From Calditrichaceae bacterium (GTDB lineage: Bacteria > Calditrichota > Calditrichia > Calditrichales > JBFXGD01): a DNA stretch of 64,000 bases. A program made the position numbers and the translations under genes. Shown here one piece after another: positions 49,940-53,798 of this stretch (position 1 is the first letter of the stretch; each line of letters starts with the position of its first letter). The DNA lies in the NCBI GenBank assembly GCA_050173015.1, contig JBFXLE010000018.1, positions 1 through 64,000 on the forward strand. The letters run 5' to 3'. The notes under the pieces were generated by a model, which did not search any database, was not told where the DNA came from, and saw nothing but the letters and a program-made list of their open reading frames with translations.

Positions 49940-49983
49940 ATTCAACAACTTAGAGAATTTCACATCCTTGGCACACCCTTTGT
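49940..49983 (+). promoter_or_regulatory. IHF-like site plus sigma54 (-24/-12)-like promoter
   Basis: ATTCAACAACTTA (one mismatch to WATCAANNNNTTR) at 49940-49952; TGGCACACCCTTTGT at 49969-49983. Confidence 0.6.
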
Positions 49984-50019: not shown

Positions 50020-50634
50020 ATGAAATCTAAGGCATTCATTATATCCCTATCTTTAATTGTATTAGTAGGGTTGGTTACAAGTTGCTCTGAGGCTCCTCAG
50101 ACTTTAATTGACGAAACAAAAGCTGCTTTTGATGCCGCGAATCAGGCCGAGGTAAATCGCTATTTACCGGAACTGTACAATGAGGCACAGAGTAAAATGG
50201 ACTCCGCCATGACTGAAATCGAATCTCAAAATTCGAAATTTTCATTGATGCGCAGTTATTCCAAGGCCACTGCCTTGTTGCAGTCAGCTTCAGAAACAGC
50301 CGGAAAATCGGTTGAAGCGGTAGCATTGAGGAAACAGGAAATTCAAAAGGAAACCGAAACATTGTTTCAGGATTTAGACAATTCAATGAAAGAATCCGGA
50401 ATTTTGATTTCTAAAGCTCCTAAGGGTAAAGAGGGGCGCGCGGCTCTTGAAAGTATTCAAAATGAGCTGAAAATTGTCGAAACGGTTGTTAACGAAGCGA
50501 AATCAGCTCAAAACGGTAATGATTTCCTTACCGCCCGTGATAAAGCCAGAGCAGCGCTGGACAAGGTAAATTCACTAAATGCTGAACTGCAGACCGCGAT
50601 TGCGAAAAAAATGGCGCTTCAGGGGAAAAGGTAA
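50020..50634 (+). CDS. All-helical lipoprotein (DUF4398-like)
   Basis: AGGAGG RBS; lipobox LVTS/C22; Ala/Glu/Lys-rich coiled-coil pattern; ends AKKMALQGKR. Confidence 0.85.
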   Translation: MKSKAFIISLSLIVLVGLVTSCSEAPQTLIDETKAAFDAANQAEVNRYLPELYNEAQSKMDSAMTEIESQNSKFSLMRSYSKATALLQSASETAGKSVEAVALRKQEIQKETETLFQDLDNSMKESGILISKAPKGKEGRAALESIQNELKIVETVVNEAKSAQNGNDFLTARDKARAALDKVNSLNAELQTAIAKKMALQGKR

Positions 50635-50666
50635 TCCTTTTCTTAACAATTTTAATTCATTAACTT

Positions 50667-50707
50667 GCGTTCCGCCGCAGATGTGTACGTGGCGGAACGT
50701 TTTTTTT
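50667..50707 (+). terminator. Intrinsic terminator inside the operon, after the lipoprotein gene
   Basis: GCGTTCCGCC…GGCGGAACGT followed by a T7 tract. Confidence 0.8.
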
Positions 50708-50739
50708 AATTTCCTGAATTTTAACAGATTTACTAAACC

Positions 50740-51888
50740 ATGTTTATTAAAAGAAAATCAAAAAAAAACATATATATCAAGATTATACTGACGGCTGCTG
50801 GAATCTTACTTATAACCCTGTTTATTTTTTTTGCGTTCTATAGAATAAATAAACCACCCGTGAGCGCGTTTATAAAAATGGATACCGCGGTAAATCAGGC
50901 CAGAAAAACCGGATCGGATCGATATACCCCGCTCCATTGGCAAAAATTAATCGCCGACCAGGCAAAAGCAAGGCAATCCTGGGACGCGGAGAATCTTAAA
51001 CCGGTTTTTCTTCGCAATTACAGGGATGCACTGTTAATGGCGGACCAGACTGTTATAGATGCTATCCATCTAACTTTACTGGTGCGCGCGAAGAGCGACT
51101 CCATAAAAAATTCATTAACCATAGGGATTCCATATCTCAAAAATGTCCTCAGCGATTACAAAAATCGGTATTCACATCTGCCTGTTTCAAAAAGTTCCCA
51201 AAATGAAACCATCACCGGTGAGTTGCTGCTTTTGGAAAGCGAATACGCCGCGGAAAGAGGCGATTATATTCTTGCCTCAAAAAAAATGAATCTGGCAGCA
51301 GGAAAAATTGAGAATGCAAAATCAACCATTTCCGGGATAATAACCGAATATCTGGCCGGAATGCCTGTGTGGCAGAAATGGGTCGAAGAAGCTTTGGCAG
51401 AATCAAGAAAAGAAAAGACAACATTAATTGTCATTGAAAAACTTGAGCATTTTTGCACCGTTTATACAGCAGGAAAATTAAGCGACCAATATAAAATTGA
51501 ATTAGGCCCGAACTGGATTGGGCCAAAAAGCTTTAGCGGCGATAAAGCTACCCCGGAAGGAATTTATAGAATAATCAAAAAGAAAATACCGCCGCAGACA
51601 AAATATTATAAAGCGCTTGAATTAAATTATCCCAACGATACGGACCGGCAGCGATTTGAATCAGGGATTAAAAACGGAACCCTTCCGTCGTTCTCTCAAA
51701 TCGGGGGATTGATTGAAATACACGGCGGAGGAGGCCAGGGTTTTAACTGGACAGACGGATGTATCGCCCTGCACAACAGCGACATGGATAGAGTGTATAA
51801 TTCAGTTGAAACAAATGCAAAGGTAATCATTGTTGGATCACTTAAGCTGCAGCATCATCTGCTATTTGATCCATACTTGTCAAAATAA
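50740..51888 (+). CDS. YkuD-family enzyme (YafK/DpaA/Csd6-like) with TM anchor and helical stalk
   Basis: N-terminal TM; GPKSFSGDKATPEGIY, LELNYPN, IEIHGG…WTDGCIAL catalytic His/Cys. Confidence 0.88.
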   Translation: MFIKRKSKKNIYIKIILTAAGILLITLFIFFAFYRINKPPVSAFIKMDTAVNQARKTGSDRYTPLHWQKLIADQAKARQSWDAENLKPVFLRNYRDALLMADQTVIDAIHLTLLVRAKSDSIKNSLTIGIPYLKNVLSDYKNRYSHLPVSKSSQNETITGELLLLESEYAAERGDYILASKKMNLAAGKIENAKSTISGIITEYLAGMPVWQKWVEEALAESRKEKTTLIVIEKLEHFCTVYTAGKLSDQYKIELGPNWIGPKSFSGDKATPEGIYRIIKKKIPPQTKYYKALELNYPNDTDRQRFESGIKNGTLPSFSQIGGLIEIHGGGGQGFNWTDGCIALHNSDMDRVYNSVETNAKVIIVGSLKLQHHLLFDPYLSK

Positions 51889-51898
51889 CTAGTAGTGA

Positions 51899-52630
51899 AT
51901 GTCGAAAATGAAAAATAATATGGATAATACATCACCCGATGCAGAAAACGCCAATGGTGAACATAAAAAAACCGGTCTCACGGGCCGCTCTTTTAAAAGG
52001 GACGGATTTATTTTGGGCCTCTTTCTCTCGATCATCATTATGATCATTTCTCCGGACCTGAGAGAATTTTATTACACCATTTCCAATCGTTTTAACCAAT
52101 CTGTTCCGGCTGAATTATCAGCTAAGGAAGCGATAAAACTAAAAAGAAATATTGAAAACCTTAAGCACCGGTACAACCGGTTAATCCCCTACTCGCCATA
52201 TATGATTGTAAATACATCCGGAAATGAATTTTATCTCAAAAAAGGTCTGAAAGAATTATACAGAGGAGTTTGTTCAACAGGAAGCTACACTTTGCTAAAA
52301 GCCCGGGACGAAAGGCAGTGGATATTTAAAACGCCCAGGGGTATGTTCCGTGTTCAGACCAAACTTGTTGCTCCGGTATGGAAAATGCCCGACTGGGCCT
52401 TTATCGAAGAGGGCCTGCCCGTTCCTCCTCCCAATGCCTCTGAAAGATTTGAATATGGTGTTCTCGGGGACTATGCCCTGTCGTTCGGAAAAGGTTATCT
52501 TGTTCACGGCACTTTGTACAAAAGAATGCTGGGAATGCCTGTGACACACGGCTGTATCAGGCTTGACGACGACGAATTAAAACAAACGTATCAAACACTT
52601 GAATTAGGTTCGAGGATTTTTATATACTGA
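51899..52630 (+). CDS. L,D-transpeptidase (ErfK/YbiS-like) with TM anchor
   Basis: KTPRG, APVWKMP, LGDYALSFG, YLVHGT…VTHGCIRL. Confidence 0.9.
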   Translation: MSKMKNNMDNTSPDAENANGEHKKTGLTGRSFKRDGFILGLFLSIIIMIISPDLREFYYTISNRFNQSVPAELSAKEAIKLKRNIENLKHRYNRLIPYSPYMIVNTSGNEFYLKKGLKELYRGVCSTGSYTLLKARDERQWIFKTPRGMFRVQTKLVAPVWKMPDWAFIEEGLPVPPPNASERFEYGVLGDYALSFGKGYLVHGTLYKRMLGMPVTHGCIRLDDDELKQTYQTLELGSRIFIY

Positions 52631-52631
52631 T

Positions 52632-53459
52632 ATGAAAAATAAAATATTAGAAATCATTGTGACATTAAAGTCGAAATTCAAATCGTACTATACTGAATTA
52701 AAAAAAGATAATCGTACACTCCGGAAATTCCTGATCAGTCTCTTTTCACCCGTGATTATCGTTATACTACTCTTCCTTATCTTGCCGCTGACATGCGCAA
52801 ATAATGAATCCCTTTCTCCGGAAACCTCTGGTGAAGATACAAAATCTGTTAAAAAGTCCGAAGCAAATTTGGGAGAATTGGAAACAGAGGAACATTTCTG
52901 GAAGAATCGTATTAAGCTGGCAAAGGATGATTCAATTTATCTGGTGATTAATCTCAGGGACAGCCTGGCGATTCTCGAAATAAAAGGCGTACCGCTTAGA
53001 GAAAGCAGGATTATCACATATGACAAAAGCAGCCTTTTGGCCGCCGGTAACAGATTCATTCATGTAGAATCCGCTTATACGCTTCAGAATGACTGGGCGA
53101 CGGTCACAAAAGCTCCTATAAAAGTGAAAATAGCCCCTAAGGACACCATTGAAGCCGGAAAAGCTGAGCAGCAACAGATTTACAATGAGGAGAGTGATGT
53201 CAGTTATACGCTGCTTTTTGATCATGATATGAGAGTCGAAATCAGACAATCCGATGAATCCTTTATTCACAAACGACTGCATTTTATGTATTACCATTTG
53301 AAATCCGTATATTTTCAATTAAGCGGGGATTTCAAAGAATTCTCGCGTTTAAGGCCGCCCAAAACCCAATTATGGCTTGAATTGGATCTCGCGAAGGATG
53401 ACGCGAAAGCTATTTATCGCGCCCTGCCTGTGAACGCGAAAATGCTGATATATTTATAG
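52632..53459 (+). CDS. Membrane-anchored protein with probable degenerate YkuD fold
   Basis: IYLVINLRDSLAILEIKG and DDAKAIYRALPVNAKMLIYL match YkuD termini; no HGT or GC catalytic motif; starts 1 nt after the upstream stop. Confidence 0.65.
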   Translation: MKNKILEIIVTLKSKFKSYYTELKKDNRTLRKFLISLFSPVIIVILLFLILPLTCANNESLSPETSGEDTKSVKKSEANLGELETEEHFWKNRIKLAKDDSIYLVINLRDSLAILEIKGVPLRESRIITYDKSSLLAAGNRFIHVESAYTLQNDWATVTKAPIKVKIAPKDTIEAGKAEQQQIYNEESDVSYTLLFDHDMRVEIRQSDESFIHKRLHFMYYHLKSVYFQLSGDFKEFSRLRPPKTQLWLELDLAKDDAKAIYRALPVNAKMLIYL

Positions 53460-53486: not shown

Positions 53487-53523
53487 AAAAAGATACTGTC
53501 CAAAAGCAATTGGACAGTATCTT
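53487..53523. terminator. Terminator between the convergent LDT operon and tatA
   Basis: 14-bp perfect stem AAGATACTGTCCAA-AAGCAA-TTGGACAGTATCTT; T tract follows on the minus strand. Confidence 0.8.
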
Positions 53524-53585: not shown

Positions 53586-53798
53586 TTAGTCTGTTAACCC
53601 ATGCGCTTTTTTTGAAGCTGATTGATTGATTTCCAGGTCACCCTGTATATCAGATACTGCCGAATGGAGACCTCTTTTAAATTCATTTACGCTGCTTCCA
53701 AGAGCTTTGGCCATTTCCGGCAGCCTTTTTGATCCGAAAAACAGCAAGATCACTAAAAATATGACCATCAGCTCTCCAAATCCGATGCTCCCTAACAT
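53586..53798 (-). CDS. tatA: Twin-arginine translocase TatA/TatE subunit
   Basis: IGFGELMVIFLVILLFFGSKRLPEMAKALGSSVNEFKRG; GAGG RBS. Confidence 0.92.
   Translation of the reverse strand: MLGSIGFGELMVIFLVILLFFGSKRLPEMAKALGSSVNEFKRGLHSAVSDIQGDLEINQSASKKAHGLTD

Follow-up and report, generated by a model that had tools for sequence, protein, structure and literature searches.

The window analysed here, a 64,000-nucleotide stretch (positions 1 to 64,000) of contig JBFXLE010000018.1 from a Calditrichaceae bacterium, carries a compact run of four genes, P1 to P4, that joins a helical lipoprotein (P1) to two putative YkuD enzymes (P2 and P3) and a predicted YkuD-fold protein devoid of catalytic residues (P4). 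All four open reading frames (ORFs) that an earlier note on this DNA had placed at 50020-53459 are present and co-oriented on the + strand (Table 1). This gene set, conserved as a unit across related loci, is the subject of the present analysis.

Table 1. Features of the P1-P4 locus, in window coordinates.
Feature	Position	Strand	Basis or description
P1 gene	50020..50634	+	ORF, 204 aa, lipoprotein with Cys22
P2 gene	50740..51888	+	ORF, 382 aa, predicted anchor, rod and YafK/Csd6-branch YkuD
P3 gene	51899..52630	+	ORF, 243 aa, putative membrane-anchored classical L,D-transpeptidase-type YkuD
P4 gene	52632..53459	+	ORF, 275 aa, predicted anchor, long helix and non-catalytic YkuD fold
Sigma-54-type promoter element TGGCAC-N5-TTGT	49969..49983	+	motif scan
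Shine-Dalgarno AGGAGG of P1	50010..50015	+	4 nt before ATG
Intrinsic terminator in the P1/P2 gap	50667..50708	+	12-bp stem, 10-nt loop, T8
14-bp perfect hairpin between P4 end and convergent tatA	53490..53523	.	terminator-like for the - strand
tatA	53586..53798	-	convergent neighbour of P4

The four-gene arrangement is conserved far beyond chance, since gene order and strand are identical (P1-P2-P3-P4) in 74 of the 80 related loci. These loci derive from a scan of species-representative genomes, one genome per species, in which 580 of 599 pattern matches were confirmed and the best 80 were fetched for locus counts; they belong mostly to Bacteroidales, Cytophagia and Prolixibacteraceae, with two from KSB1, two from Rhodothermales and one from Calditrichaceae, and include the cultured hosts Roseivirga seohaensis SW-152 (L084) and Maribellus sp. 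YY47 (L086), named in the records. Locus genes were called with hidden Markov models (HMMs) built from the alignments of this analysis; a word-based search yielded 11 P1 relatives, and the local HMMs added 78 more on the fetched loci. Four of the six exceptions lie at contig ends (L021, L024, L056, L092), one is frameshifted (L063) and one has no P1 at E ≤ 1e-3 (L078). The earlier note had staked its proposal on the neighbourhood being conserved in other genomes, and that is what the loci reveal. Additionally, the pairwise identities of the four proteins correlate with one another across 75 modules (r 0.68-0.84), and a copy with 32% identity, from another family of the window's order, consists of the same four genes. 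At L063:6128-7611 (Bacteroidales), P3 is broken into three ORF pieces and P4 survives as a 69-aa fragment, giving the appearance of a decaying module copy.

The module is distributed patchily. Full-length P2 occurs in 3 of the 41 genomes sampled from the window's own order and class, and an even sample of 301 Bacteroidota genomes has P4 in 7, each time with P1 about 2.6 kb away. Another genome (G155) holds the full module according to the local HMMs, bringing the Bacteroidota carriers to 8/301. P1 itself is found in 11/301, among them G062, where a weaker P1-like gene stands alone at its locus, and G175, with a weak match (E 3.1e-9) in a 131-aa ORF. In G258, a P1-like lipoprotein gene (L094:6539-7141, - strand) lies beside a divergent extracytoplasmic function (ECF) sigma factor gene and two uncharacterised ORFs of 135 and 176 aa; P2, P3 and P4 are absent from the 8.5-kb locus, which was searched for 5.5 kb downstream and about 2.4 kb upstream. 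A rod-regulator pair can thus exist at this locus without the enzymes.

Signals for unequal expression of P1 and the enzymes are concentrated around the first gene. A strong Shine-Dalgarno site is present at P1 only, P2 and P3 having no comparable site and the P4 ATG lying 1 nt past the P3 stop codon. Immediately behind P1, a 12-bp GC-rich hairpin (50667-50700) followed by T8 folds with a free energy of -22.6 kcal/mol (z -3.7), as good a fold arising in 1 of 200 shuffles. A hairpin with a T tract within 150 nt of the P1 stop codon recurs in 73/79 related loci against 62/395 shuffles, with stems that vary in sequence from locus to locus, and the median P1-P2 gap measures 82.5 nt compared with 6.5 and 9 nt at the other two junctions. 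The signals from which the earlier note had read an excess of P1 over the enzymes are therefore both real and conserved. P1 would be transcribed from its own regulated promoter, the enzymes arising from read-through or in smaller amounts. Among the sequencing runs listed as containing this stretch, none is an RNA run; three runs of unclassified kind, kept as contigs and all from one study, contain it.

Upstream of P1, the sigma-54-type element TGGCAC-N5-TTGT lies 36 nt from the ATG and is the single match to TGGCACNNNNNTTGY (TGGCAC-N5-TTGY) on both strands of the 64-kb window, where 0.12 would be expected by chance. A relaxed form of the motif precedes P1 in 14/79 loci against 8/1580 shuffles. 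In 20/80 loci a sigma-54-dependent response regulator and a histidine kinase are encoded just upstream of P1; 12 of the 14 motif-bearing loci belong to these 20, and none belongs to the 25 in which an ECF sigma factor gene diverges from P1. Adjoining regulators are found in about 45/80 loci; their Pfam identity was checked on L016 and L025, those of the other loci being assigned by clustering of neighbouring genes. Directly upstream of P1 in L016 lie a histidine kinase with a 4HB_MCP sensor (L016:926-2419, +) and an NtrC-type sigma-54 activator (L016:2426-3826, +). In L025, an ECF sigma factor (Sigma70_r2/r4; L025:3455-4024, -) diverges from P1, an arrangement seen in 25/80 loci of a Bacteroidales sub-group, and is accompanied by a 132-aa protein of no family (L025:3000-3395, -) that occurs in 24/80 loci and may be an anti-sigma factor. 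The genome of the window encodes RpoN. It matches the sigma-54 activator domain 26 times at E ≤ 1e-30 and five times weakly, never on the window contig. Regulators of the sigma-54, two-component and ECF types suggest that envelope stress turns the module on.

At the -12 position these putative promoters mostly read TTGT or TTGA, with the textbook TTGC in 1/14 (the window, L019, L027, L028 and L037 are examples of the set), which may represent a lineage-specific consensus. An ECF-type promoter, AAC-N15-18-CGTC, was discarded as a candidate, being no more frequent upstream of P1 (1/79 loci) than in shuffled sequence (30/1580). The pattern GAAAC-N15-18-[TC]CGG occurs in 7/79 loci against 3/1580 shuffles, all in a single sub-clade that lacks an adjoining ECF gene.

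The P1 protein carries the lipobox VTSC, with Cys22 as its lipid site, and ends in ...AKKMALQGKR, so that the helical lipoprotein with a strong ribosome-binding site (AGGAGG), a basic end and a terminator behind it is recovered as the earlier note had described. The AlphaFold model is all-helical with a mean predicted local distance difference test score (pLDDT) of 91.5, its helices spanning residues 27-42, 50-71, 81-132, 137-165 and 169-203. The earlier note had made P1 about three times longer than the E. coli lipoprotein Lpp; this stands for the number of residues but probably not for the rod, whose length is likely to be close to that of Lpp because the model forms a helix bundle in which the longest helix has 52 residues (an estimated 78 Å or so). 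Structurally, the model is of a DUF4398/BB0323-N-like rod. It superposes on PA2901 (DUF4398) with Z 12.4 and a root-mean-square deviation (rmsd) of 4.2 Å over 96/96 residues at 20% identity (model residues 24-128), and on the BB0323 N-domain with Z 12.2 over 151/157 residues, values that for helical bundles count as weak, Z below about 13 being so classed and Z near 12 being attainable through common packing. Foldseek ranks BB0323 first (probability 0.99, E 0.15). In profile searches the window protein reaches 18 bits against Pfam DUF4398 (PF14346), under the 27.9 gathering cut-off, while DUF4398 is matched at E ≤ 0.01 by 10 of 40 orthologues (best 1.7e-6) and the LipL71 model by 15 of the 40.

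The chain stops at the end of the rod: Pfam scans of the window protein and its orthologues gave no hit to LysM or any other wall-binding domain. Likewise, the window protein has no Pfam LPP match at E ≤ 1 and no orthologue has a significant one, the nearest approaches being one orthologue in 40 for the Lpp/OprI model (E 0.0041) and one in 40 for PRK15396 (E 0.0073). Fused forms of P1 were absent at E ≤ 1e-5 from 7995 scored candidates of an alignment-based search, which is weak evidence. Clusters of about 200 aa in the ESM Atlas that are DUF4398-like and similar to P1 come most commonly from Nitrospirota and Acidobacteriota.

The closest tie of P1 is to its neighbour. Profile comparison of the P1 and P2 families by hhalign gives a probability of 99.5% (E 4.2e-23) over 166 columns, identifying P1 as a paralogue of the helical domain that lies between the anchor and the YkuD domain of P2. 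This homology, together with the strict co-inheritance of P1 with P2-P4, ties P1 to the YkuD proteins and makes it very improbable that P1 belongs to some other machinery and is merely co-located with YkuD genes, for example as a BamJ-type accessory lipoprotein of the β-barrel assembly machinery (BAM). That suggestion comes from a match of the window protein to NCBIfam BamJ (E 0.0025, 18.1 bits against a cut-off of 100) limited to the first 81 residues; the match covers the signal peptide and first helix and appears in 1 of 40 orthologues, on which ground the BamJ identity was dropped.

The end of P1 opposite the lipid is rich in lysine. K137 and K196 are invariant among the orthologues. Over 80 orthologues the tail behind K196 measures 2-14 residues, of which K and R make up 54%, and its net charge averages +2.9. 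A Lys falls within the last three residues in 64/80 and within the last five in 77/80. The last residue itself is K in 42, R in 25, F in 7, S in 4, I in 1 and G in 1, so that of the basic C-terminus previously noted, the basic tail after an invariant K196 is upheld but a conserved terminal Lys is not. K137 is carried by a P1-specific insert, GKEGRAAL, that follows an invariant APKG and is missing from the P2 rod. Helix order in the model suggests a rod with the lipid anchor at one extremity and with K137, K196 and the tail at the opposite one. At the lipid end, position +2 after the Cys is Ala or Gly in 61/78 orthologues and Asp in 1/78, and position +3 is Lys in 69/78; the lipobox gives no clear choice between the two membranes.

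P2 is laid out as a probable N-terminal membrane anchor, a helical domain of about residues 36-200 and a YkuD domain (Pfam PF03734, residues 229-364, 62.9 bits against a cut-off of 23.4) with His328 and Cys341. The motifs GPK-SFS-GD-KA-TPEG-I-Y and NWTDGC are read directly from the protein, as the earlier note had read them. This two-domain layout is common, with at least 456 clusters (50% identity) matching at E ≤ 1e-30, those listed spanning nearly the whole query. The nearest solved relatives are 8ikr (E 1.7e-12), Pgp2 (1.2e-9), Bd1075 (1.4e-9) and Csd6 (5.9e-7), the first of which is E. coli DpaA (PMC10653827). P2 is assigned to the YafK/DpaA-Csd6-Pgp2 hydrolase branch. The kinship with YafK/DpaA previously proposed holds for this branch but not for orthology: with 45.5 bits against NCBIfam DpaA equivalog NF040599, whose cut-off is 365, P2 is classed outside the DpaA orthologues.

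Within the catalytic domain, K263, E326, H328, W337, T338 and C341 are invariant in 75/75 orthologues. K263 aligns with the DpaA Lys83 that binds meso-diaminopimelic acid (mDAP), and the catalytic C341 and H328 also align with DpaA, the two proteins having the motifs GxK, GD, PEG-Y, YKA, PN, IHG and GC in common. The DpaA cleft residues Gln86, Lys130, Tyr131 and Met133 correspond in the P2 alignment to Ser (variable), Gly, Leu and Glu. Among Csd6 pocket positions, Tyr133 is kept, as Y289 in 73/75 orthologues, while Trp158, which is also Trp in Pgp2, is Glu in 75/75; in the published comparison this Trp helps to line the D-Ala pocket of LD-carboxypeptidases, DpaA having Met133 in its place (PMC10653827). 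Because an invariant Glu occupies the Trp/Met position while K263, H328 and C341 are all invariant, P2 looks like an active enzyme of the hydrolase branch whose pocket is distinctive.

P3, which the earlier note had taken for the attaching enzyme, is by sequence a classical L,D-transpeptidase whose nearest counterparts are enterobacterial. Pfam YkuD scores 55.5 bits against the cut-off of 23.4, and the motifs PVW, LGDYAL, YLVHGT and THGCIRL are all present; the catalytic stretch HGT...PVTHGCIRL is kept across 33 aligned sequences, with His203, His217 and Cys219 invariant. The closest solved relative is the Klebsiella pneumoniae L,D-transpeptidase 4lzh (E 2e-11), and NCBIfam matches of similar weakness point to several E. 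coli L,D-transpeptidase models (PRK10260, 2.2e-7; PRK10190, 3.7e-7; LdtE, 7.1e-6). The enzymes that attach and those that cross-link in E. coli are closely paralogous, and we know of no sequence marker that tells the acceptor of an L,D-transpeptidase, protein Lys or mDAP.

P4 matches no Pfam or NCBIfam family, and none of its 133 relatives has a Pfam domain. Its model (pLDDT 78.5) superposes over residues 100-275 on 4xvo with a VIA-align Z of 9.4 and an rmsd of 4.7 Å over 101 residues. The structure search returns 46 chains at Z ≥ 8, the top 46 of the 50 listed all being of L,D-transpeptidase/YkuD type, and among the matches listed by Foldseek the top ones are nearly all L,D-transpeptidases. 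Moreover, hhalign aligns P4 with P3 colinearly over 167 columns, albeit weakly (probability 41.6%, E 2.7e-4), and neither Cys nor His reaches a share of one half in any alignment column of 75 orthologues. Because of these structure matches, the colinearity with P3 and the missing Cys and His, P4 is best described as a predicted YkuD-fold pseudoenzyme, the dead YkuD protein that the earlier note had recognised. The best-conserved part of P4 is the motif APKDTIEA, within residues 157-190, in which A168, P169, D171, T172 and E174 are invariant among 31 sequences; the model places it in a loop of low confidence (pLDDT 57-63), and it may be a docking motif. The N-termini of P2, P3 and P4 each consist of charged residues followed by a long hydrophobic stretch and probably serve as uncleaved membrane anchors.

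Complex prediction pairs P1 with P2. For P1 (residues 23-204) and P2 (residues 36-382), all three runs give an interface score (ipSAE) of 0.80, and none of three controls rises above 0.00; 58 of 80 solved complexes attain the ipSAE mark applied, as do 2 of 110 mismatched pairs, approximate counts since the alignments are our own. At least 93% of contacts agree between runs, and pLDDT of the partner is at least 87. On the P1 side the predicted interface comprises residues 46-74, 137-156 and 170-182, and on the P2 side the rod (39-89 and 151-175) and the catalytic domain (257, 269, 335 and the invariant W337). Because the P2 helices pack on those of P1 with the relative direction that P1's own equivalent helices adopt, the two would form a parallel, pseudo-symmetric pair. 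Each protein is joined to its membrane anchor by a linker of only some five residues. Should the pair be real, the two anchors would lie in one membrane, which for the predicted transmembrane helix of P2 is the inner one. Collectively, the findings fit a wall-directed module in which P1 physically accompanies three YkuD-fold proteins as their stoichiometric partner.

On one reading, which we consider a serious possibility and almost as likely as a covalent strut, P1 would join a stress-induced peptidoglycan-remodelling complex non-covalently, as subunit or regulator, with nothing attached to the wall. Here P3 would make 3-3 cross-links, P2 would be a stem-peptide hydrolase (LD-carboxypeptidase or endopeptidase-like), P4 would act as a scaffold, and P1 would bind the P2 rod and gate or position the P2 catalytic domain, a role that lipoprotein partners play for other wall enzymes. 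The predicted heterodimer, with contacts that reach this domain, speaks for it, as does the parallel orientation, which would place both anchors in one membrane as is usual for subunits; a pseudoenzyme such as P4 is likewise typical of regulated enzyme assemblies. Furthermore, the solved relatives of P2 other than DpaA (Pgp2, Bd1075 and Csd6) are all LD-carboxypeptidases in the published comparison (PMC10653827), although the Trp of their D-Ala pocket is the residue replaced by the invariant Glu in P2. The alternative-sigma and two-component control resembles the stress-induced L,D-transpeptidase programme described for E. coli (PMC6428754); however, the terminator and Shine-Dalgarno pattern favours an excess of P1, and regulators are not usually made in large excess over their enzyme. 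The conserved Lys-rich far end of P1 would also be left with no obvious role.

The inner-membrane placement bears equally on the proposal that P1 simply substitutes for Lpp as a constitutive, very abundant tether between outer membrane and peptidoglycan, attached by P3 and detached by P2. This proposal, a strict form of the abundant structural tether of the earlier note, shares the features that point to covalent linkage, such as a Lys-rich P1 end and the co-occurrence of attaching-type and DpaA-branch enzymes, and Lpp (PF04728) gives no hit in the whole genome, which is 97.5% complete. In E. coli, the residue at +2 after the lipid-modified Cys decides between inner and outer membrane, and the Ala/Gly found there in 61/78 P1 orthologues, with Asp in 1/78, would direct P1 to the outer one; the rule, however, is not validated in these phyla, and Lys stands at +3 in 69/78. 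Parallel pairing with a transmembrane-anchored P2 would be impossible from the outer membrane. Moreover, the sigma-54-type promoter and the regulators near about 45/80 loci point to conditional expression, and a prevalence of 8/301 in sampled Bacteroidota is low, so that a constitutive role is unlikely and strict Lpp substitution, taken as a whole, improbable.

The best reading, put forward tentatively and at rather less than an even chance, is that P1 is an inducible strut whose Lys-rich far end is joined to peptidoglycan by P3 and released by P2. It is favoured because the Lys-rich far end is specific to P1, because attaching-type and DpaA-branch enzymes share one operon, because P2 lacks the carboxypeptidase Trp, and because the expression signals point to P1 excess. 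In this mechanism, the P1 rod would span the distance from membrane to peptidoglycan, and P3 would form an acyl-enzyme with a tetrapeptide stem and transfer the stem to a Lys side chain at the far end of P1, most likely K196 or a Lys of the tail, the resulting bond latching the membrane to the wall. P2 would dock on P1 through its paralogous rod, a pairing that would place the P1 far end (the K137 loop, K196 and the basic tail) beside the P2 catalytic domain, and would hydrolyse the bond as DpaA does for Lpp. P4 may bind stem peptides or its paralogues without catalysis, thereby holding or regulating the complex.

Several points weigh against the strut. The covalent linkage at its centre is something that we purely infer. 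The terminal Lys of P1 is not conserved, the window protein itself ending in R, and K196 is placed within a helix of the predicted structure. P2 fails the DpaA equivalog, has none of the DpaA-specific cleft residues and could trim stem peptides. The interface score may echo an ancestral homodimer interface of paralogous rods instead of a true heterodimer, and a tight P1-P2 complex would fit a regulatory subunit equally well. Additionally, a P1-like gene stands without local P2-P4 in G258, the module is too rare in Bacteroidota and in the window's own order and class to be a core tether, and five proteins with an OmpA_C domain in the genome can, to judge from that domain, tether the membrane non-covalently.

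The surroundings of the operon are unrelated to it. Upstream, on the - strand, lie genes for methylmalonyl-CoA mutase, a biotinyl protein and biotin carboxylase, and downstream, also on the - strand, those for TatA and a dehydrogenase. The hairpin between P4 and tatA has its T tract on the tatA side (- strand) alone; it probably marks the end of the operon, and may act on the + strand as well. PADLOC returned no anti-phage defence hits for P1, P2, P3 or P4. The only other Pfam-detectable YkuD gene of the genome (G000:C8:162788-163213, - strand; 249-aa frame, 70.8 bits) is a candidate for a general cross-linking L,D-transpeptidase outside the module.

How the membrane is fastened to the wall beyond Gammaproteobacteria is largely an open matter. 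Lpp is restricted to a subclade of Gammaproteobacteria in the account of 10.1101/2021.05.31.446380, and DpaA-like proteins have been reported in Bacteroidetes without a known substrate (PMC8263019). P1 is a concrete candidate for such a substrate, adjoining candidate enzymes, and the parts list is shared by hundreds of species, with at least 580 loci among species-representative genomes. The earlier note knew of no description of the module, and the literature on DUF4398, YkuD/L,D-transpeptidases, tethers, sigma-54 envelope stress and Bacteroidota envelopes yielded no published description of the P1-P4 operon, supplements lying outside that search. P1-P4 may be regarded, with the reserve already expressed for its covalent link, as a self-contained, inducible envelope module of the Fibrobacteres-Chlorobi-Bacteroidetes (FCB) group. 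A bolder claim, which we hold to be on the unlikely side, is that it constitutes the first covalent protein-to-peptidoglycan strut outside Proteobacteria: a compact, patchy, stress-switched operon with substrate, attacher, detacher and pseudoenzyme, whose hydrolase finds its substrate through a fused copy of the rod, and which may tie the inner membrane rather than the outer one to the wall. Beyond this, P4 represents a membrane-anchored YkuD pseudoenzyme family without annotation, P2 exemplifies an enzyme fused to a paralogue of its predicted partner, and the predicted heterodimer is directly testable. If P1 is unattached, the module would still be an undescribed regulated L,D-transpeptidase complex.

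Among known systems, the set formed in E. coli by Lpp, LdtA/B/C and DpaA is the closest in composition. Both have a helical lipoprotein with a basic, Lys-containing C-terminus, and both combine a classical YkuD transpeptidase with a YafK-branch YkuD protein bearing GxK...GD...PEG.Y...YKA...PN...IHG...GC. The differences begin with gene order, as dpaA of MG1655 lies among unrelated genes, lpp and ldtA-C being located elsewhere, whereas P1-P4 share one operon. P1 is a 182-residue DUF4398-type bundle where Lpp is a 58-residue alanine zipper, and P2 adds to the DpaA plan a rod copy, a membrane anchor and a Glu at the position of Met133. The P1-P4 set further includes a dead YkuD protein and alternative-sigma control, while the attachment of P1 is putative. 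Other peptidoglycan-linked proteins are OutB of Dickeya (inner membrane), LimB of Coxiella and Lpg1810 of Legionella, which show that L,D-transpeptidases are able to join to mDAP inner-membrane proteins as well as internal and penultimate Lys residues (PMC12729407, PMC12274547). In Lpp, OutB and Lpg1810 the linked Lys is the last residue or close to it, and in LimB it is internal (PMC12729407); because of these precedents the features of P1 are compatible with linkage. All three proteins are proteobacterial and none has a dedicated operon; the peptidoglycan-linked proteins and enzymes of a 2025 review of L,D-transpeptidases are likewise all proteobacterial, its main text containing no Bacteroid* term.

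The solved relatives of the P2 catalytic domain, Csd6, Pgp2 and Bd1075, differ from P2 in the pocket Trp, where P2 has its invariant Glu (PMC10653827), and in the N-terminal domain; in P2 the YkuD domain is the last one. The P1 rod, in turn, is akin in predicted fold to BB0323, LipL71 and PA2901, of which the spirochaete proteins are also lipoproteins, important for the stability of the envelope and able to bind peptidoglycan by way of LysM (PMC5462797, PMC5406399). LipL71 is described as DUF4398 plus LysM (PMC5406399), and BB0323, reported to be needed for outer-membrane stability and cell fission, binds peptidoglycan through a C-terminal LysM (PMC5462797). A rod of this kind thus recurs as a spacer between a lipid anchor and a wall-binding module; P1, in contrast to BB0323 and LipL71, bears no wall-binding domain of its own and has YkuD proteins as its neighbours instead.

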